Assembly: GCF_018398935.1 (NCBI RefSeq)
Contig: NZ_CP074694.1
Span: 2,040,001 to 2,072,000 of the forward strand
DNA from: Telmatocola sphagniphila
Lineage (GTDB): Bacteria > Planctomycetota > Planctomycetia > Gemmatales > Gemmataceae
Direction of reading: 5' to 3'
DNA length: 32,000 nucleotides
The notes below the pieces were generated by a model. It saw only the letters and a list, made by a program, of their open reading frames with translations. It was not told where the DNA came from and did no database searches. Both the position numbers and the translations under genes were made by a program. Shown here in pieces: positions 3,385 through 30,890 of the stretch; position 1 is the stretch's first letter; each line of letters begins with the position of its first letter.

Positions 3385-3446
3385 GGGGCGGTGGGCTGCC
3401 GACGATGTTCCAGTCGCCGAGTTTGGGGAAGCGATGGCCGTGGTGA
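3385..3446 (+). pseudogene. 3'-terminal remnant of a terminase-large-subunit-like gene, abutting ISAs1 copy 1
   Basis: Translates GGGLPTMFQSPSLGKRWPW*, clearly paralogous in DNA and protein to the end of ORF 4189..4371 (GGLPTFFEFQSLGRRWAW*). It begins exactly at the IS boundary. Confidence 0.4.
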
Positions 3447-8857: not shown

Positions 8858-9103
8858 CCCGTCCCGCCAAGCTCATAGACGGTAAAGCCTTTGTTGATAT
8901 TCACAAGGAGGAGTTGTATCAGGTTCGGGTTATCAATCGTTCGAATAACGAAGTTGCAGTTTCTCTGGCGATTGATGGAGTGGACCAGTTCACCTTCAGC
9001 GATGTCAAAAAGGCGGATGGGAAGCCGAAATTTTCCCATTGGATTCTCGAAAAACAGGGTAATCCCAATCAAGAAATCATCATTAAAGGATGGCACAAAA
9101 ATC
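8858..9103 (+). pseudogene. 3' continuation of the interrupted secreted-protein gene, cut again by the ISL3 element
   Basis: In frame with 6932..7566 once the IS is removed. The final codons RLFRF* of ORF 8914..9120 are encoded by the ISL3 left inverted repeat starting at 9104. Confidence 0.7.
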
Positions 9104-10527
9104 GGCTCTTCCGTTTTTAGGCGCAACTCTCGGCGAATCAGTCATTTTGGGATAGATTGCAACTTAGAGTAACCATTTCCTGGTTCACGGAAGAGCCGAT
9201 GACGACGACTACCATTGCCATAGACATGGACGTCCCCGCCGGAGTGAGCGTTGGCGAATATGAACGCGTCGACGGGGGCCACGCCTTTCACGTGAGTTGG
9301 GAGTTGCCCGACAATCTTTGTTGCGAGACTTGCCGGCGTGAGTCTCCGCTTCAATTGGTGGAGAAGAACAAGTTTCTGAGCATCCGCGATCTGGATTTGT
9401 GGGGTAAGCCGAGCTTTTTCGTGTACCAGGAGGTGTATCACCGCTGCCCGTCGTGCGGTCACCGTCAATCGCTGTTGCCGCCGTTCAAGCGTCGGGATGT
9501 GAAATATACGTTCCGCTTCGAGGAGCAGGTGCTGGTCAGTCTGATCGGGAGCACAGCCGAAGACGTGGCAGTGCGTTTGGGGATTGCCGCGGAGACGGTG
9601 GAGCGAATCGTCAAGAACCGGATAGAGGACGCCAAGGCGAAGCAGATCGATCCCCAGCGGAAGATCAAGCGTTTGGGTCTGGATGAGATCAGCCTGCGTA
9701 AGGGGCATAAGGGATATGCGACAATATTGACGGACCTGACGAATGGGGAGCGTCCGGAGATTCTGGCTCTGTCCAAGGGTCGCGACGAAGCAGCGGGGCG
9801 AGCGTGTTTGGAGCGTTTGTCGGCCCAGCAACGGTCGGCGGTGCGTTGGCATCATACGGACATGAGCGCGGCGTATTTGAAGGCTTGCGGCGTGCATTTA
9901 CCCAACAGCCAGTCGGTGATAGATCGCTTTCACGTCGCCAAGAAATTGGGTGAGGTGGCGGACGATCTGCGAAAAAAAACTATCGAGCCTACAAGCGAAG
10001 TTTGAGCGGGGAAGCCCGCAAGAAGCTGCGTTCTCAGATGCACGACTTCCGGCGTCGTCCCGAGGATTTGAAACCGGAGCAGGTCCAGGCCCTCGAGGAT
10101 TTGTTCGAGAAGGTGCCTTCGTTGGGAACGATCTACCATCTGCGTTGGGAGGCGACCAAAATCTTCGATAGTGCCCCCAACCGAGCCGAAGCCTCGCGAC
10201 TGTTGGAAGATTGGATCGTCCAGGCCCGCGAGACCGAGATGGATTGGGAGCCGTTCATCACGATGCTCAAGAATAACTGGGAGGGGATCTTAGCCTACTT
10301 CGAGGAACGCAAAAGCAGCGGCCCGGTGGAGGGTCTGAATACCAAGATTCGGGTAGTGCTACGCCGAAGTTATGGAATTCAGAGTCTAACTACGCTCTGG
10401 ACGAGAATACTCCTGGACGTGAATTGGGCCGCGAAAAAATTAGGGCCGACCATTGCGGAGATTCGCGGCTTCGTCAACCAGATCCAGAAGCATTTCTCTG
10501 GATGCTACACCTAGAAACGGAAGAGCC
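9104..10527 (+). mobile_element. ISL3-family insertion sequence (1424 bp)
   Basis: Terminal inverted repeats GGCTCTTCCGTTTTTAGGCGCAAC (9104-) and the reverse complement of the right end, GGCTCTTCCGTTTCTAGGTGTAGC (-10527). The GGCTCTT start is typical of ISL3. The flanks CAAAAATC and AAATACAC are not a clean 8-bp duplication. Confidence 0.85.
9199..10514 (+). CDS. ISL3-family transposase, split into two frames at an A8 run
   Basis: zf-ISL3-like CCETC...CPSCGH, an HTH region, then LGLDEISLRKGHKGYATILTDL...DMSAAYLKA...VIDRFHV, then (ORF 10002..10514) ...SSGPVEGLNTKIRVVLRRSYGIQSL. The frame changes by -1 within cgaaaaaaaac (9972-9979). ATG at 9199 is preceded by GGAAGAG. Confidence 0.85.
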
Positions 10528-12411: not shown

Positions 12412-13874
12412 GTAATAACTCACGCCCTGGCCAAGAGAGAAGGGGCTTTCTCTTGGGCAAAGTGAGCCTGTACCGCTTGAGTCATCCAGGCGAATGAGTT
12501 CCGTTTCTGCTGACGACAAGTTTCGATCGCGGTCAGCATTCGTTCAACGAACCGACTCCCCTGGGCCGATTGGGTTCCAAAGCATAACTTCCGCCAAATG
12601 ACCGCGGGCCGCAAAGCCCGCTCGGCGGCATTATTGGTGGGCTCTACTCCTTCGACATCGACGAACGTCCAAAGCCGAGCCCGGTATTTCCAGAGTTCGG
12701 AGCAAAAGCCACGCAGCTTCGGATCGAATTTTCCTCGCAAGAGCAAGGCTTCGACTTCGCTTCGTATGGGGATCATTTGTTCGCCGAACGCTTTATGGCT
12801 GAGGGTTCCGTCCCGAACGCGATTCCAGAGTTCGAACATCGCCCGAGTCTGTCGTTGCAAGTCGTGTCCTAAGCGTCGAGCGACCGGACAGGGGCGATCG
12901 ATGAGGCTTTGGAAGTCGCGGAGCAAATGAGCCCAGCACCACTGCAAGCGTCCGAAAGCCCAATACATCTTGGCCCGGTCGCAGCCTAGAACGCCGGTAA
13001 ATGAATCGCCCAGGAATTCGAGGACCACCTGGGCTTTGCGGCTGGTGCGGAGAGCGAAGACGCTGAAAGTCGCGGCTACAAAAGTCCAGGTCCAGGCTTT
13101 GGCGAGCCCTTCTTTGGTGGGCGATTCGTCGCCGTTGAGGACCGCTTCCCCAGGCAAGGCTAAGGCCAACTCCTGGTAGGGGGCTTGCAAGGCTTCGGCG
13201 GCTCGGTTCTGCAGTTTGATCATCCAGGAAGCCGAAGCCTCCTGACCCAGGATTTGTTCCAGAAACAGGCGCAGCGTCGTTTGGAGAGCCGGAAGCAGAC
13301 CATCAACAAAGCGGACAAAGCAACCAATCGAGGCCCGGCCATTCCGACAGGCACGCCTGGGGGTAATTCTCCGCAGGTGGTCTTGCCGCACGAACAGCGC
13401 AGACGATGGAGTTGATATTCCGTAATCGAAGGCTTGATTTCGGGAATCTCCCAGACCTGATGACGCAAAGGCTGGGGATCTGTTCCGTTCAAAGGTTCGC
13501 CACAACGGCGGCATTCGGCCGGTAAACAAACAATGACGCCGTCGCACTCGTGTGCGGAAACCAAAGAGCGTTCGTGTTTGGGATGCCCCGGTTGGCCGCC
13601 CGACTTCCGTTTGGCCTTCTTTTGGGCTTGCTTCGAAAGCTTGGCGTGGGGATGTTGCGTTGAAGGCGGCTTCGAAGAGTTGCTGGAATCCTTGCCGAGC
13701 TTCGCTTCCAGTTCGGCGATGCGGTTCAAAAGAATCCGCAGCACAGCCTGAACTTCCGGCGTTTGGCGAACAAGCCATTCTTCGCTGACAGACTCCATGC
13801 CCCGAGTATGAGATAATTAATTCCCCAGCGCAAGAGCAATTCCCGATAATCTCAGGACGAGGTGTGAGCGGTTA
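12412..13874 (-). mobile_element. IS66-family insertion sequence, single-ORF type (1463 bp), with 8-bp target-site duplication
   Basis: Ends GTAATAACTCACGCC... and (reverse complement) GTAACCGCTCACACC...; the GTAA start is typical of IS66. Perfect direct repeat TTGAATAC at 12404-12411 and 13875-13882, which is the ATPase codon context ..ILNT.. Confidence 0.9.
12420..13798 (-). CDS. IS66-family transposase, split into two frames (-1 offset)
   Basis: N-terminal ORF 13220..13798: leucine-zipper-like start, SSNSSKPPS, GGQPGHPKH, zinc-finger CRRCGEPL...CSCG, GPRLVALSALL. DDE part lies in the C-terminal portion of ORF 12420..13778: LNGDESPTKEG..WTWTF...LGCDRAKMY...WCWAHLLRDF...EPTNNAAERALRP. Junction is at RLSK / TTLRLFLEQILG (TTT run 13280-13282 on the + strand). 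Confidence 0.85.
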
Positions 13875-16289: not shown

Positions 16290-17009
16290 ATGATTTTTTT
16301 TCGAATAGATAAATTTCGAAACCCTGGTTCCGCCGGGCTCGAACCCTCCGAGTCCGCCGTCGGCTCACTTAAAGGGAATAATGGATTGGTCAGGCTCTCC
16401 GACACTCCCACGCCTGTTTCTCTTCTCGGCCAGCTCCATCGCGCCCCATCCGACCCGCAGGCCTGGGAACGGTTTGTGAATCATTATGGACCCAAAATCC
16501 ATGCGTGGTGTCGGTCCTGGAATTTGCAGTACGCCGATGCCCAGGATATCACGCAAATCGTGCTGCTCAAAGTGGCCGCGCAGCTGAAAGAATTCGAATA
16601 TGATCCCCAGCGCAGTTTCCGCAGCTGGCTCAAAACGGTGACCTTTCATTCCTGGCGCGATCAGGCTCGCAAAGAGAACCGCGCTGCCTCCCCGCGATCG
16701 GAGGAAGCCCTGGTATTTCTGGAAGCCACCGAAGCCAAACAATCGCTGGCGCGCACTCTGGAAGAGGCCTTCGATGAAGAGCTGCTCGGTTTAGCGAGCG
16801 CTCGCGTGCGCCTGCGTGTCGCTCCGAAGACCTGGGAAGCCTTTCGACTCAGTTCACTCGAGCAGCTTCCCGGCGCTGTCGTGGCCGAGCGCCTCGGGAT
16901 GAAGGTCGCCATGGTCTATATTGCCCGCAGTCGGGTGCTGAAGCTGCTGCGTTCCGAATTGATCCAACTCGATCCGAGTCTAGGCGAAAACGAGAATCCG
17001 GATTCTTAG
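16290..17009 (+). CDS. ECF-type RNA polymerase sigma factor
   Basis: Region 2-like: PQAWERFVNHYGPKIHAWCRSW..DAQDITQIVLLKVAAQL..SFRSWLKTVTFHSWRDQ. Region 4 HTH: LPGAVVAERLGMKVAMVYIARSRVLKLL. Start is uncertain (ATG 16290 or TTG 16386). The stop TAG is immediately followed by the kinase ATG. Confidence 0.85.
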   Translation: MIFFRIDKFRNPGSAGLEPSESAVGSLKGNNGLVRLSDTPTPVSLLGQLHRAPSDPQAWERFVNHYGPKIHAWCRSWNLQYADAQDITQIVLLKVAAQLKEFEYDPQRSFRSWLKTVTFHSWRDQARKENRAASPRSEEALVFLEATEAKQSLARTLEEAFDEELLGLASARVRLRVAPKTWEAFRLSSLEQLPGAVVAERLGMKVAMVYIARSRVLKLLRSELIQLDPSLGENENPDS

Positions 17010-20000
17010 ATGAAAACCTGTCCCGATCAAAATGCTCTGACGCAGTTGCTCGAAGAGCAGTTGGCCCCCAACCGGCTCGAGGAGCTGCTCCAGCATATCG
17101 AACACTGTTTGAATTGTCAGAATCAACTCCAGGACCGGACGGACCAGGAAATGACCTCCTGGAGCCCGTTCTTTTCCCCGCTTCGCGAGAAGCCGGAACC
17201 AACTCCCGAGCAACCGACTTATCTTCCGGCCTTCCTCGAGTCCCACCGGCCTCCCCACTCCGCTTCTCCCCTCGATGCTCTTTCCGAGGCCCCCTGGCCT
17301 TCGGTCGACGGCTACGAACTTCTCCGAGTCTTAGGACGCGGAGGAAGCGGCGTTGTCTATGAAGCGCGGCAACGGACGCTCGACCGAGTCGTTGCCCTGA
17401 AACTGCTTCGCGCCGACTTAGTCCGCGATCCGCGGGTTCGAGAGCGGCTCCAACAGGAAGCGGCGATCCTCTCCCGGATGCAACACCCCAACATCGTGAG
17501 CGTCTTCGATTTCCTGGAGTCGGAGGGCTCTCCCTGCCTGGCTCTGGAATTGGTTCGGGGGGGGACGCTCGCGAGCTGGAGCGCTAAAACTCCGGTAGCG
17601 ACCCGGGTCGCCGTCGAAATCTTAATTCCCATCACGCGAGCCATCGAATACGCCCATTCCCTGGGCATCCTGCATCGGGATCTGAAACCCAGCAACGTAT
17701 TGCTAGCCACTTCCGAGACTGCGCCCCGGCCAAACTCCGAGAAATCGGGAATTCCTCCCGAAGCGATCAAGGTCACCGATTTTGGCTTGGCCAAATACTT
17801 TGGCAGCGCAGAAAATCTCGAACGCTCTTTGACCGAAACCGGGATGATCGTGGGTACCCCGTCCTACCTGGCCCCGGAACTCGCCAGCCAACCTTCCTCG
17901 AAGCTGGGCCCGGCCGCGGATATCTATTCGCTCGGCGCGATCTTGTATGAACTGCTCACCGGACGTCCGCCCTTCCAGGCCGACACCCCACTGAACACCC
18001 TACTGCTGGCAATTCAGGAAGAACCGCTTTCGGTGGCGCGCCTGCAACCCCAAGTTCCGCGCGATCTCGGGACGATCTGCATGAAGTGCCTGGAGAAAGA
18101 TCCGCGCAAGCGCTATGGCCAAGCCGAAGATTTGCGCAAAGACCTCGAGCGATTCCAAGCGGGGGAAAACATCCTGGCCCGCCCGCTGGGAACGCTGGAA
18201 AAAGCGACGAGACTCGTTCGGCGGCACCCGTCGCAATCACTATTGATCCTGACCCTGGGGCTGGTTTTGATCGGATCTTTGGCCGCCGTGGGGAATCAGT
18301 ATCAGAAGACCCGAGGGGCGCTTGGGGATCTGACCCAACGGACCCAATCCGAAGCCCGCGCCCACGAAGCCGCCGATCGCGCGCGGGAGCGATCGGAACG
18401 AGCCTCCCTGGAACTGCTTTTGGATCAAAGCGTGACGCTGTGCCAAAAAGACGATCTGGCGAGTGGGTTACAGGGGCTGGCCTCCGGACTCGAGCGGGCC
18501 GGCGCGGCCGATTTTCCCGATTTGAAATCGGTGTTGGCCAAGAATCTTCAAGCCTGGAAAAATCAAACGCTCCTTCCGAGAGTCAGTCCGCGCTTCGGGT
18601 CTTCGGTCACCTCGCTGGCGTTTGATAGTCGGGGACAAAAAATACTCGTCGGTCTGTGGGGTAACAAGGATCAAAAACCTGGCCCGGGCGAAGCCCGGCT
18701 CTGGGACGTGGCTACCTGGAAACCCCTGAGCCCCCCTCTGCCGCACCCGGGAGCCGTATTGGCCGTCGCCATGAGCCCGGACGATCGCTACCTGCTCACC
18801 GGGAGTTTCGACGGTTCGGTGAAACTCTGGGACAGCTCCTCGGGGCAACCGATCTGGGAATCTTCGCGGGAATTTCAACGCGTTTTCAGTGTGGCTTTTC
18901 GCCCGGATGGACGGCACTTTGCCGCGGCGGGACTTTCGAATGACCCGAAATTCCCCGGGGAGGCGCGGATTTGGAATTTGCTCTCAAAAGAGAGGGCCTT
19001 TCCGGCCATACGGCAGTCGGGAATCCTCACCTGCCTCTCGTATAGTCCCAATAGTCAGTGGCTGGTCACGGCGGGGAGTAGTTCGTGGGGAGAAGATCGA
19101 CTTCACTCCGCGGGAGAATGTCGTCAATGGAATGCCGATACCGGAACTCCGGTCGGTCCCGCTTTGATGCACTCGGGATTAGTTCGAAGCGCCGTCTATA
19201 GTCCGGAGGGGAATACGCTACTCACCGGAGGAGTGGACCAAGCGGTGATTTCTTGGAATCGTCAAACCGGTCAGCGTCAGCCTCCCTTGCTTCTCCAGGA
19301 GTTTGGAATTCAATCCTTAACGTGTTCGAAGGAGGGCCGCTTCCTCCTGAGTGGCGGCGGACGATCGGATAAAGAATCACCGGTCCAAAAAGCGGCCTGT
19401 CTCTGGGATGCCGAGACGGGAGCGCGCTTGATGGCCCCCTTAATCCAATCCGACGACGTGTCGGCGGTGGCCTTTCGACCCGAGCACCCTGCCTTTGCTA
19501 CCGGAGGCCGCGACGGCAAAGTCCAACTCTGGGAATTCGCGAGTCTTCTCCCGGCCTGGGAAAAACGCTACGCGACGCCGTTATCGGCCGTGTCGTATAG
19601 CCCAGATGGGCGATTTCTCGCCGTCGCCGGGGATCAGAAGAGTCCCGCTCGAGGCTTAATCGAACTTTTGGACGTCTCCGAGCCGAGTCGAACTTACCGC
19701 TTCGGTGAAGGCTGGGATCCGGTGGAGGCCCTCGCGTTCACGCCCGATAGCCGTAGCCTCGCCGTCAGTTATCGAGGAAACGCTCGGGTCGAACTCTACG
19801 AGGTCCCCTCGGGAAAAAGAATTCGGCCGCCGCTTCCGCACGCCGGAACGCCGCGCCAGCTCTCGTTTTCGCCCGATGGCCGTAAGCTGCTGGCGTTTAC
19901 CCCCGGGGCCGTCGGAGTCCTCTGGGATTTGACGTCTGGTCGGCCCCTTTGGGAATGTCAGCATCAAGGCAACCCCATTCAGGCGACGGCGTTGAGTCCC

Positions 20001-20582
20001 GACGCCAAAGTCCTGTTAACCGGAGGAAAAGATGGGGTGGTCCGATCCTACTCGGCCGAAAACGGCCAATTTCTGCGGGAACTGGCGCGCACTTCCGGAA
20101 CCATCCTTTCCTTGAATTTCCACGAGGATTCCCAGGAGTATTACGTCGGCGATGCAGAGTCTCATCTGTCGGTGGGGAATCTCGACTCGGAAGAACCGCC
20201 GAACCCGCTGTTATCGCATACCCGCTCGGCGGTGCAGAAGATTCTTCCCTTGAATTTTTCCCATCGCGTGCTGACCCTCACTCAAAACGCCTACAGTCAG
20301 TTCGGCGAAATTTGGATTTGGGATCTGTCCCAGAATAAAGCGGAAGTGAAGCAGGCTTGGGGCTTAAACGCCACAAAAGTGCTTTACAACGCTCCGACGC
20401 AGACTTTCCTCACCGCGGATGGCAATCGCAATTTACAACTGTGGGATGCGGTGACCGGGCGGACGATTGGGCCCGCCCGAAAACATCCGGGCCACATCAC
20501 CGGCTTTGACTTTGCCCCCGATGGAGCCAGCTACGCCGTCGTCGGGGAAAAGGGCTATCTCCGCATCTGGAAAACCCCCTGA
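17010..20582 (+). CDS. Ser/Thr protein kinase with N-terminal anti-sigma-like zinc-finger motif, one TM helix and a C-terminal WD40 array
   Basis: HIEHCLNCQ (H-x3-C-x2-C) in the first 40 aa. Kinase motifs GRGGSGVVYEA, VALK, HRDLKPSNVLL, DFGLAK, GTPSYLAPE. TM helix LLILTLGLVLIGSLAAVG. Many WD-like blades from about 18630: GSFDGSVKLWD, GGRDGKVQLWE, GGKDGVVRSY, LQLWDAVTG, YLRIWKTP. Confidence 0.9.
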   Translation: MKTCPDQNALTQLLEEQLAPNRLEELLQHIEHCLNCQNQLQDRTDQEMTSWSPFFSPLREKPEPTPEQPTYLPAFLESHRPPHSASPLDALSEAPWPSVDGYELLRVLGRGGSGVVYEARQRTLDRVVALKLLRADLVRDPRVRERLQQEAAILSRMQHPNIVSVFDFLESEGSPCLALELVRGGTLASWSAKTPVATRVAVEILIPITRAIEYAHSLGILHRDLKPSNVLLATSETAPRPNSEKSGIPPEAIKVTDFGLAKYFGSAENLERSLTETGMIVGTPSYLAPELASQPSSKLGPAADIYSLGAILYELLTGRPPFQADTPLNTLLLAIQEEPLSVARLQPQVPRDLGTICMKCLEKDPRKRYGQAEDLRKDLERFQAGENILARPLGTLEKATRLVRRHPSQSLLILTLGLVLIGSLAAVGNQYQKTRGALGDLTQRTQSEARAHEAADRARERSERASLELLLDQSVTLCQKDDLASGLQGLASGLERAGAADFPDLKSVLAKNLQAWKNQTLLPRVSPRFGSSVTSLAFDSRGQKILVGLWGNKDQKPGPGEARLWDVATWKPLSPPLPHPGAVLAVAMSPDDRYLLTGSFDGSVKLWDSSSGQPIWESSREFQRVFSVAFRPDGRHFAAAGLSNDPKFPGEARIWNLLSKERAFPAIRQSGILTCLSYSPNSQWLVTAGSSSWGEDRLHSAGECRQWNADTGTPVGPALMHSGLVRSAVYSPEGNTLLTGGVDQAVISWNRQTGQRQPPLLLQEFGIQSLTCSKEGRFLLSGGGRSDKESPVQKAACLWDAETGARLMAPLIQSDDVSAVAFRPEHPAFATGGRDGKVQLWEFASLLPAWEKRYATPLSAVSYSPDGRFLAVAGDQKSPARGLIELLDVSEPSRTYRFGEGWDPVEALAFTPDSRSLAVSYRGNARVELYEVPSGKRIRPPLPHAGTPRQLSFSPDGRKLLAFTPGAVGVLWDLTSGRPLWECQHQGNPIQATALSPDAKVLLTGGKDGVVRSYSAENGQFLRELARTSGTILSLNFHEDSQEYYVGDAESHLSVGNLDSEEPPNPLLSHTRSAVQKILPLNFSHRVLTLTQNAYSQFGEIWIWDLSQNKAEVKQAWGLNATKVLYNAPTQTFLTADGNRNLQLWDAVTGRTIGPARKHPGHITGFDFAPDGASYAVVGEKGYLRIWKTP

Positions 20583-22495: not shown

Positions 22496-23443
22496 CTACT
22501 TCTTGATCTTTTCCCACAGCCCAAGGATACCGCCGGCTACCAACAGGAGGACGAAGAAACGGCCCCAGCCGAGCTGATTCTGGATACTATCGTAGGCCCC
22601 CGCCAGACCTCGACGAGGCGCCGGCGGCAAAGTCCCCTGATTGGTACTTTTGAACTTGCTTGCTGCGTTTCGCGCGGCCTCACTCTGAAAGAGTTCAACG
22701 ATCGAAACGGGTTTCTCCAAGGCCATTCCCTCGACTCCGGTAAAGACCATATCGTCGATCTTCCAACCGCTGGATAGGATCAACCGAAAGTACCCCTCCA
22801 TTTTCTTTCTTTGGCCCACCTCCGAAAACCAGGTCGAGCCGCGAAAGCCTACCATTTTGATCCCCGGCTGGGGACCATCGGTTTCGCGGGTGAACTCGAA
22901 CTGGTCGTTGGGATCCTCGGGGGTTTGCTCCTTGTAAAGTTGTTCGATCCAGGTTTGCATCCGGGGTGTGGTGTAATTCTTAGCTTCGATCGGCGTTTTC
23001 GCCTCCTGCAATTTCTGGCAGACCTCCATGGGGGTATAAGGCCGTAACCATTCATTGACTTGATACCCCAGCCAGCCGAGAATCCCGAGCGTTCCGAGAG
23101 CCATGCCGAGGAAGATCGCCAGCGACAATCGATCGGGTGCGGGCGGGGAAGTGGGAAGGGTTGGAGATCCCGAGGTTGCATTCTTGGGGTAAGGGACGAG
23201 TGGTGCGGGGCTGTTCTGGAGAAGAGTGGGAGGTTTGGGAAGGGGCTTTTCCTCGAGCGTTCCGAAACCGGGGAACTGTCGTAACGGTTGCCACTCCTGA
23301 CCGCCGACCAGACTGGCGCGCGTGTCCCCATGGACCCGCCCGGCGGAAATCTCAGCGTGTACTTGTTCCACGGTAAAGGGACCCGTGGGCAAATCGGCGA
23401 TCAGGAGCCAGTATTGAACGGGGGCCAGAGAACTACTATTCAT
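22496..23443 (-). CDS. GYF_2 (DUF4339)-like domain membrane protein
   Basis: N-terminus QYWLLIADLPTGPFTVEQVHAEISAGRVHGDTRASLVGGQEWQPLRQFPGF fits the GYF_2 pattern. Proline-rich linker, then TM helices (LAIFLGMALGTLGILGWLG and FFVLLLVAGGILGLW). Confidence 0.6.
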   Translation of the reverse strand: MNSSSLAPVQYWLLIADLPTGPFTVEQVHAEISAGRVHGDTRASLVGGQEWQPLRQFPGFGTLEEKPLPKPPTLLQNSPAPLVPYPKNATSGSPTLPTSPPAPDRLSLAIFLGMALGTLGILGWLGYQVNEWLRPYTPMEVCQKLQEAKTPIEAKNYTTPRMQTWIEQLYKEQTPEDPNDQFEFTRETDGPQPGIKMVGFRGSTWFSEVGQRKKMEGYFRLILSSGWKIDDMVFTGVEGMALEKPVSIVELFQSEAARNAASKFKSTNQGTLPPAPRRGLAGAYDSIQNQLGWGRFFVLLLVAGGILGLWEKIKK

Positions 23444-23522: not shown

Positions 23523-23762
23523 ATGGTGAAACGAGAACGCATCCCCGGGATTCAAGAACGATTTGGCACCGCGGTGAAATTCCGACGCGAGAAATTGGGA
23601 CTCACGCAGGAAGATCTCGCCGCGGCCGCGGGCATCCACCGCACTTATTTGTCCGATGTGGAACGGGGCTCCCGCAATCTGAGTCTGGTGAATATCGAAA
23701 AGCTGGCCGCCGCTCTGGCTTGGAAGATCTCGGAACTTTTTGCCTACGTCGAACGAAGTTAA
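23523..23762 (+). CDS. XRE-family HTH regulator resembling restriction-modification controller (C) proteins
   Basis: LGLTQEDLAAAAGIHRTYLSDVERGSRNLSLVNIEKLAAAL parallels the C-protein pattern (..R.Y....ERG.RN.SL.NI.KLA.AL). 79 aa. Confidence 0.8.
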   Translation: MVKRERIPGIQERFGTAVKFRREKLGLTQEDLAAAAGIHRTYLSDVERGSRNLSLVNIEKLAAALAWKISELFAYVERS

Positions 23763-24077
23763 TTCCGCCTTTTTCCTCCAGCGTCGGTATTTTCTCCTCG
23801 AATGCAATTAGAGGGTGTTGAGGTTTACCGATCCTTAGTTATTGCGATTAAACCTCCTGGAGAAGTAATGTAGAGCCTCTTGCCTTCGCCCCTCCGCTTC
23901 CAACCAAGAACCAGGCTCTGCCAACCTTTGATTCCGCCAATTAAATCACACCAGTTGGAAATTTTGACGGCTTTTTGGAAAGAGAATTTTTTCTACAGCC
24001 AAAAACCCTTGCATCGTTTGACCTAATGGCTTAAGCTGAGGCTCTCTCTCCCTCCAAAACCCTTGGAGTTTTTTGTT

Positions 24078-24386
24078 ATGAAAAGTCCTATTCTTGAAGA
24101 AGAAGCTCGAGAGCTTCATTACGCGATTTGTTATTTTGGATCTAATTGTCCGCATCCGTTCGGATTGATTTCTTCACTCATTTCGAATGCCACGACCAAA
24201 ACATGTATGGAGACCTTCGAGTCGTCCGATGAAGCTGAAAAACGGCTTCAGGATGTGATCAAAACTACCGAGGCGCCGATCGTCACAAAGGTATCAAAAA
24301 TTGATATGTTGCGTCGGTGGCAAAACCAAATTCGAGCGACGAATAAGGAATACGACATTAACTTTGTCATGAAGATGAATGAATAG
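24078..24386 (+). CDS. hypothetical protein (102 aa) in the low-GC spacer
   Basis: The only sizeable ORF in 23.8-25.1 kb. No recognisable motif or convincing RBS. Composition differs from the neighbours. Confidence 0.25.
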   Translation: MKSPILEEEARELHYAICYFGSNCPHPFGLISSLISNATTKTCMETFESSDEAEKRLQDVIKTTEAPIVTKVSKIDMLRRWQNQIRATNKEYDINFVMKMNE

Positions 24387-25114
24387 AAATTGCTGATATT
24401 TTTGGTCGCGAAACAGATGGGGACTACACGCCGCCTCCACACGGATGCGGAGGTGCGCGTCAGGATGCTCGTACTATCAGACTCTTATCCACTCCTGAGA
24501 GTACGCGTACAACTGGTTTACTGGTATCGCTCCAGTTCGACTGGCTCTGAAAACGTTGATAGAAACCACTGTCAGTCGTATCGCTTCGGCCGTCCGAACC
24601 TGATTTCGAGGCTCGGTTACAGTCCGAAATGCAAACTTCGCAAACTTCGTTTCTCACGCAAACGAAACAATAGGACGCCGTGATAGTGTTTTTTATGATC
24701 TGCTCGATGGTGTCTAAAGTTTTGTGAAGAGTGCCCCTCGCTTGGAGCTTGTGCCGAAGGGAAGAGCCTCCCACCAAGATGTCAATCCCCGTAAATGGAG
24801 GATTCCTTCAAAAGATATCTCTTTCAACAAGCTGTCCTTTATTGCCGCTTCATTCGTCGGCTCTTCTGCCAGGGGAACTCCAGCTCGGCCTGCCCTATTC
24901 AAAGAGCCTACTGGCACAGGGCGTATCTCAAGATTACCAAAGTGTCAGTAGTTCCGCGATACTCGAATCTCCCTAATGGCTATCCCATTGGAGCCCTCTA
25001 AATCTTCTCTAAATTCCCAGCCTTTTTGCGTCAGTACCTTTGAGGGAAGTCTAGCTTTGGCTTCTTTCCGGTGAGCCTCTTTTGAGGCACCACTTTACCC
25101 CTTTTCAATCCACG

Positions 25115-25139
25115 ACAACCACCGACCCCCGGCGGTTGT
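25115..25139 (+). promoter_or_regulatory. leader hairpin just upstream of the first operon RBS
   Basis: ACAACCACCG acccc CGGCGGTTGT (10-bp stem, one mismatch), followed by TTCGTTTC and then AGGAG at 25148. Confidence 0.25.
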
Positions 25140-25159
25140 TTCGTTTCAGGAGACTACTC

Positions 25160-25441
25160 ATGCTCATTCCGATGACCGTTCCTGTTTCTATTCCCGTGCT
25201 GTCGCTCGAAGCTCGCCAGCAGGCGTTCGTGACGATTCTGCCCCTGTTGGAGACGAAGGCTCGTTTCGCCTTGCGAGATCTGGCCTCTCCGCACGATCGC
25301 GAAGATGCCGTGGCCGAAGTGGTCGCCCTGGCCTGGGAGCATTTCCGGCAATCCCGACCTTTGCCGGCCTCGCGTTTTATCCAGCAGATCCCACTGTTTA
25401 TCGCCACAGTACGACAACGCCTGAGCTCTTGCCCGGTCTAA
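25160..25441 (+). CDS. hypothetical protein (93 aa), first gene of the operon
   Basis: ATG at 25160 with AGGAG 7 nt upstream. The helix-rich segment REDAVAEVVALAWEHF is only vaguely reminiscent of sigma-70 region 2. No firm assignment. Confidence 0.5.
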   Translation: MLIPMTVPVSIPVLSLEARQQAFVTILPLLETKARFALRDLASPHDREDAVAEVVALAWEHFRQSRPLPASRFIQQIPLFIATVRQRLSSCPV

Positions 25442-25739: not shown

Positions 25740-26870
25740 ATGAAAACCCTCGTTCCCGACTGCGCGGCCCTGCAGGCCCATTTCGCTTTGCTCCGTTCGG
25801 AATTGGCTTCTGGCCTGATCGAACGCGACGAAGAAATCGATCTCTGCCTCACCGCCCTGATCGCCCAAGAGCATCTGCTCTTGGTCTCGCCTCCGGGCTG
25901 TGCCAAATCGCTGCTGCTCGATTCCCTCCTGAAAGCCACCGGCGGCTCCAAGTTCTCGATCCTGTTAACCAAGTTCACCGTCCCCGAAGAGGTCTTCGGT
26001 CCCATATCCATACAGGGACTGAAGGAAGACCGCTTCCAGAGGATCACCACGAGTAAACTGCCCGAAGCCGACTTCGCCTTCATCGATGAAGTCTTCAAGG
26101 CTTCCTCGGCGATCCTGAATACCCTTCTGAAGATTCTCAATGAACGGACCTTCGATGCCGGCGAAGGTTCTTTACGCAAAGTCCCCCTCAAGCTTTGCGT
26201 CGCGGCTTCCAACGAATGGCCGGCTCCGGAGAGTGCTCAGGAACTTGCCGCGCTGTTCGACCGCTTCACTCTGCGCAAGAGTTTATCCCCGATTCGCTCG
26301 CAGGCGGGTCGGAAGAAGCTGCTCTGGAATCGGGAGCATACTCCCAAGGTCTCCGTGCACTTGAAACCGAGCGATCTGGAAGCCGCCCGCCGCTATGCCC
26401 GAGAATTGCCCTGGTCGATTCCGGCTCAGGAAGCCTTTGAAACCATTCTCAAAGACCTGGCTAAAGAAGGCGTTCAGCCGGGCGATCGCCGCCAGTTCAA
26501 GGCGGTCGGCATCGTGCAGGCGTATGCCTTTTTGCAGGGGGCCGAGCAGGTCGAACCGGAACATCTGGAAGTAGCCGCGCATGTTCTTTGGGACGATCCG
26601 AAAGAACAGCCCGCCAAGGTCGCTCAAGTGATTGCCCGCATCGCCAATCCCATCGGCATGCGGTTGAATCAGCTTCTGTTAGAAGTCGAGCAGGTTCTCT
26701 CCTCGACCGATGTCCGCAAGCTGCCCGAGACGGCCAAAGCCGCCGCCAAGCTCGGCGAGATCGACAAGCAGCTGAGTGAATTGAAGTCCAATGACCGGGT
26801 CACCCGAACCCGGAACTACGTTCGCGAACAGCTCCGACAACTCAAACTCGCCTCGCTGGAGGCGATCTAA
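25740..26870 (+). CDS. RavA/MoxR-like AAA+ ATPase
   Basis: Walker A-like [26 protein letters not shown], Walker [26 protein letters not shown]. These are colinear with E. coli RavA: GPPGIAKS / TRFSTPEEVFGPLSIQAL / [25 protein letters not shown]. Confidence 0.9.
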   Translation: MKTLVPDCAALQAHFALLRSELASGLIERDEEIDLCLTALIAQEHLLLVSPPGCAKSLLLDSLLKATGGSKFSILLTKFTVPEEVFGPISIQGLKEDRFQRITTSKLPEADFAFIDEVFKASSAILNTLLKILNERTFDAGEGSLRKVPLKLCVAASNEWPAPESAQELAALFDRFTLRKSLSPIRSQAGRKKLLWNREHTPKVSVHLKPSDLEAARRYARELPWSIPAQEAFETILKDLAKEGVQPGDRRQFKAVGIVQAYAFLQGAEQVEPEHLEVAAHVLWDDPKEQPAKVAQVIARIANPIGMRLNQLLLEVEQVLSSTDVRKLPETAKAAAKLGEIDKQLSELKSNDRVTRTRNYVREQLRQLKLASLEAI

Positions 26871-26886: not shown

Positions 26887-28257
26887 ATGAATGCCGAAGA
26901 ACTCCGTAAACTCTTCGATCTCGATCGCCCGTTACCGCCAACAGCTTCTAATGCCGAAACTTCTTCCCCTTTCCATTCCGCTCCGTCTCCCTCTGCTCCT
27001 TCCGCGAATCCAACCGCACTGCAGGTCGATCCCTGGGGGCTGCGTCGGGGCAGCGATCTGCTGCGGGATTCTCCCCGCTTGCAAACGTTCGCCTTGGACG
27101 AGTACGCCATCGCGGATTTTCACACGGCGGCTTTTGAACCGGAACCGCAGCTGTTGGAGGATTGCCAGGATCCGGCCCGCCGGGCTTTCCTGGTCGAGCT
27201 GTTCCAGACCCCGGAGTACCAAGCGTTGCACGCCGGGACCCGTTTGGATGAAGTGTCCTCCGAGATTGCCACCCTGCACTTCGCTGAACAGTTCGCTGCT
27301 CTGCGGAATGCTTCTGCCACGGCCGAACCCGAGATCGCCACCTTAAAAGCGGTCAGCCGGGCGGTGCTGGCCGCTCGGGAAGAGGTCGACCAGTGCCGGG
27401 AAGCGATTACTGCTCTCGGCGGCGGGCTCGGTCCGGGAACGCCGGGCTCCGTCGATCCTAAGGCGATCGCTCAACTGTTTCAGCGGGTCCGTCAGGACCC
27501 CACGTTGCGAAGGATCTGCGAACTGGCCGGTCGTTATCGGCGACTGGCCCAGTCGAGCCAGCGTCGCAAATGTGCGCACGGTCAGGACGACTTGGTCGGA
27601 GTGACTACCTCCGGTGATTTGGCCCAACTGCTGCCGCACGAGTTGGTCCGCTTGGGAATTCAAGAGTTGGAACTGGATACCCTGCGGCGTCTGGCCGAAA
27701 GGCAGTGCCTGGCCCGGGACTACCAGTCCTTGGAACCGGTGGGCAAAGGGCCGATCGTGGTGGTCATCGATGAATCGGGATCGATGGCTGGGGATAAAGT
27801 GCAAACGGCCAAAGCTCTGGCTTTGGCCTTAGCCTGGATCGCCCGGCAGCAGCGTCGCTGGTGTGGTTTGATCGCCTATTCGGGCGATACCGGCGAACGG
27901 CTGTTGTCTTTGCCGCCGTCCCGCTGGGACGAATCGGAAGTGCTCGACTGGCTGGGAGCCTTCCTGGGCGGTGGTTCGACCTTGGATGTTCCGATTGTCG
28001 AACTGCCCTGGATGGTGGAACAGCTCTGGGCTCCGGCGGGCATTACCGATGTCTTGATCCTGACCGATGCCATCTGCTCGATTCCTCTGGAACTGCAGCA
28101 GAAGTTCCTGGCCTGGAAGCGCTCGGTTTCGGCGCGGGTGATTTCGTTGGTCTTAGCCGAGACCGCGGGTGACCTGGCGGCGCTAAGCGATGAAGTCCAT
28201 CTGGTCCAGTCGCTCGAAGTCACCGAGACCGCCCTCGGTTCTGTACTGTCGATCTAA
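26887..28257 (+). CDS. vWA-domain protein (ViaA/CoxE-like partner of the ATPase)
   Basis: MIDAS-type core GPIVVVIDESGSMAGDKVQTAKALALALAWIA ... LIAYSGD ... GGGSTLDVP ... VLILTDA in the C-terminal half. Starts 16 nt after the ATPase stop, with its own SD. Confidence 0.85.
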   Translation: MNAEELRKLFDLDRPLPPTASNAETSSPFHSAPSPSAPSANPTALQVDPWGLRRGSDLLRDSPRLQTFALDEYAIADFHTAAFEPEPQLLEDCQDPARRAFLVELFQTPEYQALHAGTRLDEVSSEIATLHFAEQFAALRNASATAEPEIATLKAVSRAVLAAREEVDQCREAITALGGGLGPGTPGSVDPKAIAQLFQRVRQDPTLRRICELAGRYRRLAQSSQRRKCAHGQDDLVGVTTSGDLAQLLPHELVRLGIQELELDTLRRLAERQCLARDYQSLEPVGKGPIVVVIDESGSMAGDKVQTAKALALALAWIARQQRRWCGLIAYSGDTGERLLSLPPSRWDESEVLDWLGAFLGGGSTLDVPIVELPWMVEQLWAPAGITDVLILTDAICSIPLELQQKFLAWKRSVSARVISLVLAETAGDLAALSDEVHLVQSLEVTETALGSVLSI

Positions 28258-28362: not shown

Positions 28363-29241
28363 ATGAGTGCTTTGATCAAAACCAACCACTTGCCTAAGGT
28401 GACCCCGGGTGTTCGCCTATTGGGTGAGATCATCACCTGGACCGCATCCGGGGCCAGCGTCCGGCACAGTGACTTGATCCGAGCCCTGAAGGAAGTCGGA
28501 CTCGATGAAAGCGTGGCCCGGGAGCTGGCGCCCCGGCACGCTTTTGCCCGGGCCTGTCGCAAGCTGTCGGAAGCCCGAATTATTCGGCAGATTGCCGAAG
28601 ATGAAGTCTCGATTCAATTCCAGTTCACCCAGGAATCGAAACAGGGGGACCGCTTCAGCTACGACTTCGAAACTCTTCTGACGCTGACCAAGAAGACCGG
28701 GCAGGTGCACTGCGACAAACGGGAACTGGCTCTGCTAGCTCAGGAAGAGCTGGATCGCTGCATTGCCGTGCGGACCGGCAGCGATATTACCCGGATTGTG
28801 CAAAAGCTCTTCGAACGGGAAGCCGATCTTTTCCCGATTCGACCCCAGGGCGGAGCCTACTTCGTGCCGCAGCTGCATGCCGGCTTCATCGATCGGGTGC
28901 AGAGCTTGTTGAAGCAGCTGAATGGTCAGATGCTGCGCTTCCCGGTGCCGGAAGGAACCGCCAGCGGCGATGTCTCAGTGAAAGAAGCAGTCGCCTCGGG
29001 ATTAGCGTCTTTGATTGCCGAACACGAGGAAGCGATCGAATCGTTTGGCGAAGACACCCGGCCCGATACGGTGGAGCGAGCCGCCGAGCGAATTCGCAAC
29101 ACCAAGTTCAAAGTCGAAGCCTACGCCGCGTTGCTGGCCGATCAAAAGCATCAGTTGGAACTCTCTCTGGCTACGGCCTCCCGAAAGCTCCGTCAGAAAG
29201 TTGAAAGTCTGGCCGCCGAGCGGGAAGCGGTGCTGGTCTAG
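28363..29241 (+). CDS. hypothetical protein (292 aa), no family recognised
   Basis: Uninterrupted ORF with an SD, and composition like its neighbours. Features: IRPQGGAYFVP motif mid-protein, and an acidic/helical C-terminal third ending in coiled-coil-like KHQLELSLATASRKLRQKVESLAAE. Confidence 0.75.
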   Translation: MSALIKTNHLPKVTPGVRLLGEIITWTASGASVRHSDLIRALKEVGLDESVARELAPRHAFARACRKLSEARIIRQIAEDEVSIQFQFTQESKQGDRFSYDFETLLTLTKKTGQVHCDKRELALLAQEELDRCIAVRTGSDITRIVQKLFEREADLFPIRPQGGAYFVPQLHAGFIDRVQSLLKQLNGQMLRFPVPEGTASGDVSVKEAVASGLASLIAEHEEAIESFGEDTRPDTVERAAERIRNTKFKVEAYAALLADQKHQLELSLATASRKLRQKVESLAAEREAVLV

Positions 29242-29337
29242 TTCGACTGGCTTTTCAATTGATTCGCAGTTCTGCTGATTCGCCCTTTGCCCACCTACTC
29301 GCCCTTTCACTCCAACACGATTTACCGGGAGAAAACC

Positions 29338-30684
29338 ATGATTCATTTGCAGCGTCGGCAAGTCCGGCAGTTACGCAGCCTATTCAAGAAATTGGGAGCG
29401 ACCCGCTGCCCAGCTCCGACTAGCCTCTTGCTCCAGACCGATCCGAGCGGACTTACGATTCAGGGCTCGGTCGGCGAAGTCACGGCGATTTACCGTCTGC
29501 CGGGCTCCTTTGCCGAAGAACAGATGACCATTCCTTTTGCCGTGTTCAATGATACCGCCGGCTCGGACGACAGCGTCGTCGAGATTGTGGCCCTGGTCCA
29601 TCAGAAGTTGCGGGTGGCTTGGAGTTCGGGCCCGATGCCGCAGGTTCGCGAGTACGAGATTCTCGCCAGCGTCGAAAGCTTGCCTTTACCCGATGTCTGG
29701 ACGCCGATGGACCTGCGTCTGCGGGAAGCATTAGCCGAGGCGATGAAGACGGCTAGCCCCGAAGCGACGCGGTACGCCGCCAATTACATCCAGTTGCGCG
29801 GCCGAACGGGCGAGGTCATCGGTACCGACTCCAGGCAACTGTTCATCGAATCGGGATTCGCTTTTCCTTGGGACGATGAGGTCTTGATCCCCCGGTCTGG
29901 ACTCTTCGCTGCGGAAGAACTCTCGGCGGACAGACTGGAAATCGCTCGTACAAAAACGCACCTCTGGTTCCGCTTGGGGTCTTGGATGATCGCCTTGCTA
30001 ATCGCCTCGGAAGCCCGTTATCCCGAAGTCCATCGAGCGATTCCTGCCTCTTTGGAAGCGACGCGCTGGAGGATAGACCCGGGAGAATCGCACGGGTTGG
30101 CTCAGTGCTTGAAGCAGTTGCCGGGCGAGAAAGATCCGCATCGACCGGTGACGGTGGAACTCAACGGTCACGTTGCGATTCGGGCTCGAGGAACCGAAAG
30201 TCTGCAAACGACCGAAGTTCACCTCAATCGCTCTCAGGTGGAAGGGAATCCGATGAGTCTCGCCTTGGATCGAGCTTACCTGCAGCGAGCCTTGCAGTTG
30301 GGTTTTTCGGAGTTCCAGATCGTTCATCCCGATAAACCGATAGTCTGCCAGCAGGGCAGCCGAAGGTTCGTCTGCATGCCGCTGGGTAAAACCTCGGTGA
30401 TCGCGGCTTGTCCAGAGGCCTTGCAGGTGGAGTTGGGAGAGACTGCCCGAGCGATGAGCGGCAAAAATACTTCGACGAGAATACGAGATCGGGCCAGGAA
30501 CTTCAGTTCGGCGATTCTGGCCGGTCTTCTGGAAGAAGCGAACTCCCTGCAATCGGTAGTTCAAGCCCTGCTGGAGCGATTGACCTATTTAAGCGAAGAG
30601 CTCCATCGGTTGCTTCCTCGCCGGAAATCGGAGCGCATCGGTGTAAATACTCCGTCCGAAGCCATGATCGATCCATTTCTTTAA
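29338..30684 (+). CDS. divergent DNA sliding-clamp (DnaN-fold)-like protein with a C-terminal helical extension (448 aa)
   Basis: ATG at 29338 is preceded by GGGAGAAAACC. TRYAANYIQLRGRTGEVIGTDSRQLFIE..DDEVLIPRSGLF, EARYPEVHRAIP, LALDRAYLQRALQLG and RRFVCMPL line up in order with the DnaN blocks TRYYLNGMLFETEGEELRTVATDGHRLAV..SVIVPRKGV, GRFPDYRRVLP, IGFNVSYVLDVLNAL and YVVMPMRL. Confidence 0.7.
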   Translation: MIHLQRRQVRQLRSLFKKLGATRCPAPTSLLLQTDPSGLTIQGSVGEVTAIYRLPGSFAEEQMTIPFAVFNDTAGSDDSVVEIVALVHQKLRVAWSSGPMPQVREYEILASVESLPLPDVWTPMDLRLREALAEAMKTASPEATRYAANYIQLRGRTGEVIGTDSRQLFIESGFAFPWDDEVLIPRSGLFAAEELSADRLEIARTKTHLWFRLGSWMIALLIASEARYPEVHRAIPASLEATRWRIDPGESHGLAQCLKQLPGEKDPHRPVTVELNGHVAIRARGTESLQTTEVHLNRSQVEGNPMSLALDRAYLQRALQLGFSEFQIVHPDKPIVCQQGSRRFVCMPLGKTSVIAACPEALQVELGETARAMSGKNTSTRIRDRARNFSSAILAGLLEEANSLQSVVQALLERLTYLSEELHRLLPRRKSERIGVNTPSEAMIDPFL

Positions 30685-30734
30685 CCGTTCGAAACTTCGA
30701 TTCTTTTTCATTCCAACCCTATCGGAGAAAATGC

Positions 30735-30890
30735 ATGAGTGCGAAGCACAAATTGAATGCGGCCTATATGTCGGGCTCGTTTCTGATAGCGATCTTAGTC
30801 GGAGCTTTCTTTCAATCGACGGCGATTGTCCTGGGTACGCTGGCCTTCTTGCTCTTCATGGATTTCGTTGCGGGCAATATCCGCAAATAG
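30735..30890 (+). CDS. small hydrophobic membrane protein (51 aa)
   Basis: ATG at 30735 with GGAG about 8 nt upstream. SGSFLIAILVGAFFQSTAIVLGTLAFLLFMDFVAG is almost entirely hydrophobic. A strong terminator follows directly. Confidence 0.6.
   Translation: MSAKHKLNAAYMSGSFLIAILVGAFFQSTAIVLGTLAFLLFMDFVAGNIRK

Follow-up and report, generated by a model that had tools for sequence, protein, structure and literature searches.

What kind of protein is encoded at positions 29338-30684 of the 32,000-nucleotide stretch of Telmatocola sphagniphila DNA analyzed here (contig NZ_CP074694.1, positions 2,040,001 to 2,072,000; "the window"), and what might it do among the genes that surround it? A preliminary description, made from the sequence, had proposed a highly divergent protein with the DnaN fold and a long helical tail, serving as an accessory clamp outside any replication context. 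On the strength of its predicted structure, we conclude that the open reading frame (ORF) encodes a real, very divergent bacterial beta clamp with a three-domain fold. As to its role, we incline slightly toward an accessory beta sliding clamp of mobile-element origin, which would have retained the partner-binding cleft and gained a tail.

Identity of the clamp and size of its family

The ORF is intact and comprises 448 codons, from an ATG at 29338 to a stop at 30684 on the forward strand. We fixed the start at 29338 because GGGAG lies 8 nucleotides 5' of this ATG, because a 23-sequence family alignment starts exactly at MI(H/T)L..R, with whose first residue the N terminus MIHLQRR coincides, and because the public annotation, a 100% identical "hypothetical protein KIH39_08310" of T. 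sphagniphila (Gemmataceae, 6.59-Mb genome), is likewise 448 amino acids (aa) long. A longer form starting from a TTG at 29287 was rejected on the same three grounds. The protein divides as follows.

29338..30435 (+), clamp core, aa 1-366 (AlphaFold2, Foldseek, PDB profile search, PHROG_947, family conservation)
Within the core, three clamp domains at about aa 1-120, 121-240, and 241-366 (AlphaFold2 model)
Within the core, the motifs: basic N-terminal helix, aa 6-19; TRYAANY, aa 144-150; GTDSRQLF, aa 162-169; RYPEVHRAIP, aa 227-236; last strand RFVCM-PL, aa 342-349 (model strand 342-346)
30436..30510 (+), linker, aa 367-391 (AlphaFold2 disorder, gap-rich alignment, charge)
30511..30684 (+), C-terminal tail, aa 392-448 (AlphaFold2 helix, family conservation)

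As a single sequence, the clamp matches no Pfam or NCBIfam family even at E ≤ 1, no PADLOC model, and no PDB sequence, which bears out its earlier characterization as highly divergent; control dnaN genes from plasmids and phages hit all three Pfam DnaN domains, and the window clamp hits none. The sole curated profile that it matches is PHROG_947, "DNA polymerase processivity factor" (aa 30-321, E 1.3e-7). When the 23-member family profile was searched against PDB sequences, the top matches were beta clamps only (E 1.2e-8 to 2.5e-7), and hhalign against E. coli DnaN gave E 1.4e-5. Such resemblance to DnaN clearly exceeds what chance would give.

The AlphaFold2 model (mean pLDDT 84.8, pTM 0.75) consists of three repeated helix-plus-sheet domains running through residue 366, with core pLDDT values mostly of 84 to 97 and a lower value of 70 for the block at aa 21-30. 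A Foldseek search of the PDB with this model returned 465 matches at E ≤ 0.001, and all 50 of the top matches listed were bacterial beta clamps; the best had E values of about 1e-21 over ~380 aligned columns, target-normalized TM scores of 0.71 to 0.76, and 16 to 19% identity. Predicted phage clamps match the model as well as cellular clamps do. The proposal of a DnaN fold stands. Of the four sequence blocks that had been aligned by eye with E. coli DnaN, the first three were reproduced by hidden Markov model (HMM) and hhalign comparison. The fourth, RRFVCMPL, agrees in strand position with the final core strand of the model. The reading of GTDSRQL in place of the canonical ATDGHRL was also correct, the family consensus being ATDGxQL.

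With three tandem clamp domains superposable on solved beta clamps and significant sequence homology, the protein belongs in the DnaN superfamily. The arrangement of PCNA, 9-1-1, and T4 gp45, in which two-domain protomers form a trimer, does not apply to a model with three domains per chain. Relative to DnaN proper (PF00712/PF02767/PF02768, TIGR00663), the window clamp shares the three-domain fold, the colinear cleft motifs, and an acidic core combined with basic helices, but it differs in its low identity, in matching none of those curated models, and in carrying 82 aa of linker plus helical tail. It is also multicopy, lies away from dnaA, recF, and gyrB, and departs from DnaN at two cleft positions described below.

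An exhaustive profile search over 1.84 billion cluster representatives (50% identity clusters) yielded 4,166 matches at E ≤ 1e-3, of which 1,390 remained at E ≤ 1e-30. Among the best 150 matches, lengths ranged from about 410 to 635 aa (nearly all 440 to 530), with the profile covered through to the tail. The family members whose source is named all come from Planctomycetota (Isosphaeraceae, Planctomycetaceae, and Telmatocola). This is a large, unnamed family of tailed clamps, some 470 to 500 aa long, that lacks a curated model and has so far been labeled "hypothetical protein." Phage- and plasmid-encoded sliding clamps are already known; what is new is a clamp family with a conserved tail, comprising at least a thousand sequence clusters; our alignment A1 already suffices for building a Pfam-type model.

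Conserved surfaces, tail, and genomic copies

Across 167 full-length family members, conservation is strongest at aa 161-180 (ATDGxQLLxxxGFxFPW), followed by the basic N-terminal helix at aa 1-20, in which R6 and R13 are >90% conserved, and many columns of the 23-sequence alignment are invariant. By HMM and hhalign, the family motifs TRYAL, ATDGxQL, and RFPxVxxxIP correspond to VRYYL, ATDGHRL, and RFPDYRRVLP of DnaN. In E. coli beta, these DnaN motifs provide the cleft that binds partner peptides with R152/Y153, T172-L177, and P242. From this mapping we infer that the most tightly constrained surface is probably the one that holds partners, between domains II and III. The preliminary description had suggested checking whether the residues of this cleft are conserved: the motifs that line it are the best-conserved part of the protein, but the family has an invariant Q in place of E. 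coli R176 and a variable residue at H175, and the window clamp departs further, as taken up below.

The tail of ~95 aa that had been described is real and conserved across the family, although its length is better given as 82 aa past the last core strand (aa 367-448), or as 99 aa when counted from MPL. Its first portion is a low-complexity linker of family-variable length (alignment columns 400-470 are gap rich) that is disordered in the model (aa 369-390, pLDDT <50), apart from a short, low-confidence helix at aa 379-387, and that carries a net charge of +4 in the window clamp. A long amphipathic helix follows (aa 392-425, pLDDT 66 to 81), and the end is unstructured. In the 167 members, tail conservation (0.51 to 0.62) equals that of the core, with a mean identity of 0.62 at aa 421-440. 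Across the family, the core is mildly acidic (median net charge of -4), and linker plus tail are basic (+6). In the 9-1-1 clamp, a heterotrimer of the two-domain PCNA type, the long and flexible C terminus of Rad9 acts as an arm for docking or regulation. Rad9 resembles the window clamp as a tailed clamp by analogy only, being of a different clamp lineage and having a tail unrelated in sequence.

Two candidate clamp-binding motifs of the QLxLxL-like kind were considered and set aside. One, SLRQLxL in the family C terminus, is part of a leucine-rich helix, and the window clamp lacks it; the other, QLELSL in the neighboring DUF6744 protein, has a Q that is not conserved in the DUF6744 consensus.

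Exact look-up of the window proteins showed that the T. sphagniphila genome holds four sets of consecutive accessions, each comprising a MoxR-type AAA+ ATPase, a von Willebrand factor A (vWA) protein, a DUF6744 protein, and a clamp.

Cassette 1 (the window), QVL33891-94
Cassette 2, QVL33821-24
Cassette 3, QVL31614-17
Cassette 4, QVL30256-59
ATPase identity among the four copies, 95.5-97.1%
vWA protein identity among the four copies, 92.5-95.6%
DUF6744 identity among the four copies, 96.9-98.3%
Clamp identity among the four copies, 68.8-95.5%

All four clamp copies are intact and full length. They diverge in mosaic fashion, with stretches of 100% identity directly beside stretches of 45 to 65%, and the linker and tail differ most (40 to 65% identity), making the tail the fastest-diverging segment. 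In the comparison of the four paralogs (P0001, P0303, P0002, and P0003), P0002 is 98 to 100% identical to the window clamp in windows spanning aa 221-300, falling to 52 to 65% identity at aa 181-220 and past roughly aa 340, and the differences between P0303 and the window clamp are confined to the first 160 aa. This pattern suggests recombination or gene conversion between cassettes, together with fast change in the tail. Four cassettes in which three genes are near identical and the clamp is mosaic and fast diverging offer a natural system for mapping partner specificity in a clamp.

These copies bear directly on whether the protein could be the housekeeping DnaN of this organism, merely a very divergent one. 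It does have the DnaN fold. However, there are four paralogs, 69 to 95% identical, each in the same accessory cassette; none of them matches the single-copy pattern of a gene near dnaA-dnaN-recF-gyrB; the chain does not end at the MPMRL-type strand; and the window clamp reaches neither the TIGR00663 nor the Pfam DnaN thresholds. Family members elsewhere adjoin recombinases and transposases. No dnaA, recF, or gyrB is evident among the window ORFs of at least 150 aa, not every ORF having been scanned. A housekeeping role is made unlikely by the mosaic divergence of the copies, and because there are four paralogs and no match to the DnaN equivalog model, it is very unlikely that this clamp is the only dnaN of the genome. 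We regard the housekeeping explanation as effectively refuted, and the earlier view of the protein as an accessory clamp as upheld.

Gene company of the clamp and its possible roles

The preliminary description had placed an AAA+/vWA pair next to the clamp. The pair is present, but it lies upstream of a further gene, which encodes a DUF6744 protein and is the one that directly precedes the clamp.

25740..26870 (+), MoxR/RavA-like AAA+ ATPase, 376 aa, Walker A SPPGCAKS (Pfam, NCBIfam, PHROG)
26887..28257 (+), ViaA-like vWA protein, 456 aa (VWA_2, ViaA, phrog_24053)
28363..29241 (+), DUF6744 protein, 292 aa, directly upstream of the clamp (PF20529, E 1.5e-10)

The ATPase matches bpMoxR (PF20030, E 7.8e-51), AAA_5 (E 1.1e-21), AAA_lid_8, and phrog_19600 (E 7.6e-66). 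The vWA protein (VWA_2, E 4.8e-4; phrog_24053, E 1e-18) begins with a conserved peptide, ELRKLFDLD, continues with a Pro-rich linker and then a helical region, and ends with the vWA domain at aa 290-456; the Pfam scan found no C-terminal beta-propeller match. The two are thus reminiscent of RavA-ViaA, with a MoxR-clade AAA+ protein whose RavA-like P-loop ends in AKS and a ViaA-like partner, but both fall far below the equivalog cutoffs: 190 bits (E 6.3e-56) against a cutoff of 681 for RavA, and 76 bits (E 3.6e-21) against 500 for the NCBIfam ViaA model. The AlphaFold2 model of the DUF6744 protein (pLDDT 80.8) has a weakly winged-helix-like N terminus, a beta-sheet middle, and a long helical C terminus, with no significant fold match in the PDB. 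More than 900 homologs were found; among the best 120 listed, one cluster is 97% identical and the others are 62 to 71% identical, and those that are named come from Gemmataceae, Fimbriiglobus, and Isosphaera.

Two terminal features of the pair may be mentioned here. The first 48 aa of the vWA protein (26887-27030) hold a conserved short peptide, MNAEELRKLFDLD, followed by a Pro/Ser-rich linker; related peptides are DLLKLLDLD in planctomycete homologs and LRKFADLA and INKLKDLA in homologs on Nocardia and Streptomyces plasmids. It looks like a docking motif. The MoxR C terminus (26826-26870) ends in REQLRQLKLASLEAI and resembles the end of the clamp-family tail, SLRQLKLxE, which is absent from the window clamp. 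A relationship between this C terminus (LRQLKLASLEAI) and the tail was set aside: the likeness probably reflects a conserved terminal helix of the ATPase's own, which its plasmid and phage homologs share.

The same three genes occur together well outside Planctomycetota, on plasmids of Bacillota and Actinomycetota and in large phages. A tblastn search located DUF6744 on large plasmids from four genera (Brevibacillus, Alicyclobacillus, Nocardia, and Streptomyces) and in two phages, Moorella phage MTATph1 (177 kb) and Bacillus phage 0305phi8-36 (219 kb). Every annotated DUF6744 context that we opened held a bpMoxR-type AAA+ gene and an adjacent gene for a large protein within a few kilobases, with AAA+/vWA about 10 kb from DUF6744 in phage 0305phi8-36. 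The AAA+ proteins match PF20030 in the three cases tested (E 1e-42 to 1e-56), and the large protein is an annotated or confirmed vWA protein in most contexts, the Nocardia one having no Pfam match. On both Alicyclobacillus plasmids (pDSM3922.1 and ALC3), the order is dnaN-DUF6744-AAA-vWA with ssb nearby, whereas the window has AAA-vWA-DUF6744-clamp; pDSM3922.1 has a CHC2 primase-type gene near this block, and ALC3 has an AcrIIA9-family gene together with an antirepressor. On a Brevibacillus marinus plasmid with the triad, dnaN is 5.5 kb away. The phage 0305phi8-36 block comprises RecQ (gp70), the ATPase (gp66), the vWA protein (gp63), DUF6744 (gp46), uracil-DNA glycosylase (gp43), a clamp (gp39), DNA polymerase (gp240), and UvsX (gp241).

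Because the triad adjoins plasmid dnaN genes and sits in a phage replication block, the gene company of the window clamp is that of a mobile-element DNA-metabolism module and is not foreign to replication. The claim that the gene stands outside a replication context, recruited to another function, is therefore not supported in that form: the triad lies beside canonical dnaN on the Alicyclobacillus plasmids and inside the replication/recombination block of 0305phi8-36. The nearest kind to the window clamp is the mobile-element-encoded beta clamp (PHROG_947; gp39 of 0305phi8-36; the dnaN products of pDSM3922.1 and ALC3), which it resembles in profile match, in structure, and in bpMoxR/vWA/DUF6744 company. 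Those clamps differ from it in being ordinary and tail-less (361 to 393 aa), with all three Pfam DnaN domains above threshold.

Among planctomycetes, we collected 69 loci with a clamp-family member (loci are labeled L001 and so on), called their ORFs by a heuristic based on longest ORFs and third-position G+C content (GC3), and clustered the products. The clamp ends at least three operon types that have little else in common. Type A, the commonest, runs from a DUF1257-sized small protein and DUF2997 through a ~497-aa classical AAA ATPase (PF00004; phrog_8638, E 5.8e-87) and variable genes to an unannotated ~325-aa protein, an 81-aa protein, the clamp, and a ~165-aa protein; its ATPase has phage kin, as in Rhizobium phage RHph_I4, where the gene adjoins DUF1257 and DUF2997, with DnaB and Pol I not far away. 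Type B is the window arrangement, bpMoxR-vWA-DUF6744-clamp (L065, L068, and L070), and in L008 and L009, from a 9.3-Mb genome, two small ORFs are inserted between DUF6744 and the clamp. In type C (L064), the genes that precede the clamp encode an AAA_5 MoxR-like ATPase and a DUF2201 metallopeptidase-vWA protein. Profile-profile comparison by hhalign found no homology between the non-clamp partners of different operon types, and none among the various genes downstream of the clamp. Because of this lack of homology among partners, we conclude that an AAA+ ATPase of a kind other than RFC/gamma recurs upstream of the clamp by non-orthologous replacement. The idea that the ~325-aa protein upstream of type A clamps is a distant DUF6744 was dropped, hhalign showing no relationship.

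The wider surroundings of these operons include large serine recombinases (beside the clamp operon in L020 and L022), a tyrosine integrase (Phage_integrase), Ku, PD-(D/E)XK nucleases (PDDEXK_1), transposases, and XRE regulators, and the neighbors in L002 include an ATP-dependent DNA ligase and an exonuclease. In two long-read metagenome-assembled genomes (MAGs), the clamp gene is broken into several frames (L006, 9893-11442; L007, 9919-11367), by sequencing frameshifts or as pseudogenes. One clamp locus (L046) adjoins type I-C-like CRISPR-Cas genes (Cas3, Cas5d, and Csd1), which are probably host context.

How might an accessory clamp of mobile-element origin work? It would dimerize head to tail into a ring around duplex DNA, and the retained cleft would tether proteins that carry clamp-binding peptides, either host Pol III or repair enzymes or, alternatively, the element's own ligase and PD-(D/E)XK exonuclease, as in related operons. 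Such tethering could support the replication or repair of element DNA, with the tail as an added arm for docking or regulation. Assembly, loading, or remodeling of the clamp complex would probably fall to the co-encoded AAA+/vWA pair together with DUF6744.

MoxR-vWA pairs are generally viewed as chaperone/co-chaperone systems (PMC7824862, PMC7159879). A more specific proposal is that a MoxR-vWA chaperone, with DUF6744 as adaptor, loads, unloads, or remodels a mobile-element clamp independently of the host clamp loader, and we hold this stronger form to be rather unlikely. The conserved tail would then be a handle gripped by the vWA metal ion-dependent adhesion site (MIDAS) or by the ATPase pore. 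Behind it stand the three pairings of ATPase and clamp: MoxR with a ViaA-like vWA protein and DUF6744, MoxR with the DUF2201 peptidase-vWA protein, and the phrog_8638 AAA protein. It offers a testable possibility, namely, that some mobile elements handle their own clamp by a chaperone-type ATPase and not by an RFC-type loader; if true, MoxR-vWA-DUF6744 would be a previously unrecognized clamp-handling machine.

Several observations weigh against an accessory clamp of mobile-element origin with a retained cleft and a gained tail. None of the planctomycete family members had a gene for a DNA polymerase, primase, or replicative helicase within 7 to 10 kb. One planctomycete locus (L010) has MoxR-vWA-DUF6744 with no clamp-family gene within 10 kb, and in four other contexts, including Nocardia pNF1, a Streptomyces plasmid, and the Moorella phage, the triad has no clamp within 9 kb. 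The island in the window shows no recombinase and no flanking att-like repeats above chance. A tblastn search with the clamp gave no match in the phage and plasmid collections, and scans of IMG/VR with three pattern sets found no clamp-family relative, although such scans are insensitive and their silence is weak evidence. The Telmatocola clamps lack the terminal basic/leucine motif of the family (LKRxRKQSRL...TLASLRQLxL), and at the cleft the window clamp deviates from the family consensus with G162 for A and S165 for G. The Telmatocola proteins are a divergent twig of the family.

The genes found at L010 and L011 in place of a clamp are those for DUF6573, DUF6166, a 428-aa protein with a weak REase-ARP match, a DNA methylase, and a large DEAD/ResIII helicase. 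The combination recalls Brevibacillus plasmids (DUF6573), and the B. marinus plasmid has DUF6094 with a DEAD helicase.

The lack of a polymerase nearby would also agree with the protein being a clamp-like regulator or decoy and not a processivity factor, mimicking or occupying the place of the host clamp and so redirecting or inhibiting host replication. Its cleft might bind host clamp-binding proteins, it might form heterodimers with host beta, or it might track along DNA as an activator of element transcription. T4 gp45 is a clamp that acts as a DNA-tracking transcription activator. Further precedent comes from clamps in transcription and from the use of the host clamp by phage Mu (PMC12867686). 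The cleft motifs being the best-conserved part agrees with such a role, and the much faster divergence of the clamp than of its three neighbors, greatest in the tail, would suit a specificity or interaction surface. However, the mosaic divergence resembles gene conversion rather than positive selection alone, the conserved basic N-terminal helix with its invariant arginines fits DNA encirclement, and the sequence does not separate a regulator from an ordinary clamp. On balance we think this account unlikely, if somewhat plausible.

A different possibility is that the cassette is part of a MoxR-vWA conflict system, serving host defense or element counter-defense, in which the clamp senses or marks DNA and the AAA+/vWA pair controls an effector. 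The ATPase matches PF20030, the MoxR of the ternary systems described in PMC7159879; the cassette is multicopy with one variable component; XRE regulators and GYF/transmembrane proteins lie nearby; and plasmid homologs sit among genes of anti-defense type (AcrIIA9, an antirepressor, and a DUF6094 protein beside an SNF2/DEAD helicase). The published ternary system combines MoxR, a vWA protein with a C-terminal beta-propeller of about four blades, and a third component with a variable N terminus plus tetratricopeptide repeats (TPR) and a beta-propeller (PMC7159879). Here, the vWA beta-propeller and the third TPR/propeller component are absent, and the third and fourth genes are instead DUF6744 and the clamp, a combination that PMC7159879, which makes no mention of any clamp, does not describe. 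A WD40 protein does occur in the window (the kinase at 17010-20582), 5 kb from the cassette and beyond an opposite-strand beta-lactamase-like gene plus the GYF/HTH pair. No PADLOC model rises above noise, the cassette has no recognizable effector domain, and the triad sits in phage and plasmid replication blocks. We consider a conflict system distinctly improbable.

Finally, the clamp could be a decaying relic without function. The island has no recombinase, the window clamp no longer has the terminal tail motif or some of the consensus residues of the family, and the long-read relatives at L006 and L007 appear frameshifted. Against decay, all four genomic copies are intact and full length, a good ribosome-binding site precedes the start codon, many alignment columns are invariant, and the family counts at least 1,390 clusters at E ≤ 1e-30, with most of the best 150 being full length. 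This explanation is highly improbable.

In the literature, we found no paper that mentions DUF6744, no mention of MoxR/vWA in a paper on plasmid leading regions, and no link between clamps and MoxR-vWA beyond separate mentions in one jumbo-phage survey. The association of the clamp with MoxR-vWA-DUF6744 appears to be undescribed. As a linkage that crosses phyla, it provides the first functional handle on DUF6744 and also one on the many orphan MoxR-vWA pairs of phages and plasmids.

The island and other features of the window

The cassette belongs to an island of ~8.5 kb (about 22.4 to 30.9 kb), flanked by a beta-lactamase-like gene on the left and a Ser/Thr kinase gene on the right. Its remaining genes are as follows.

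22496..23443 (-), protein with a GYF-like N-terminal domain and transmembrane segments, 315 aa, left edge of the island (blastp, L002 14199-15152(-), E 1.5e-16)
23523..23762 (+), XRE-type helix-turn-helix (HTH) regulator, 79 aa (66% identical to L002 16534-16770, HTH_31/HTH_3)
25082..25441 (+), small conserved ORF, 119 aa (blastp, L001 807-1154, E 1e-7; L002 831-1526, E 2e-5)
30735..30890 (+), possible 51-aa membrane peptide, uncertain, right edge of the island (reading of ORF 30408-30890)

Homologs of the small conserved ORF open related clamp operons. The XRE gene, which also matches L003 and L004, is divergent from the GYF/transmembrane gene, and this pair recurs near other clamp operons. 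The GYF-like label comes from a by-eye reading of the sequence; a GYF_2 (PF14237) protein of 327 aa lies beside an HTH gene in L003 and L004, in a place that is analogous by position alone. Beyond the possible membrane peptide are ~0.5 kb without ORFs, and then the Ser/Thr kinase gene, which runs from near 31385 past the end of the window. Because it has no recombinase of its own, the island may be a domesticated or non-autonomous remnant. No tRNA gene and no Rfam family was found around it, and scans for promoters and terminators remained at chance level. The XRE gene is separated from the first ORF of the cassette by ~1.2 kb (23800-25050) of reduced G+C content, whose ORFs are all of low GC3 and include no gene that convinces; regulatory or non-coding elements could lie there, and Rfam found nothing.

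Insertion sequences (ISs) abound upstream of the island. Two 1,299-bp IS copies (2090-3388 and 7563-8861), 100% identical and inverted, encode a 353-aa DDE_Tnp_1 transposase and bracket 4.2 kb that contains a PSCyt1 planctomycete cytochrome c gene (5120-6898) and a 223-aa ORF, in the layout of a composite transposon. At 9157-10514, the overlapping ORFs 9157-10005 and 10002-10514 apparently represent a split ISL3-family transposase, and 12420-13778 (-) encodes a transposase of the IS66 family. Between these elements and the island, a gene for an extracytoplasmic function (ECF)-type sigma factor (16290-17009) abuts the gene for the 1,190-aa Ser/Thr kinase-WD40 protein (17010-20582).

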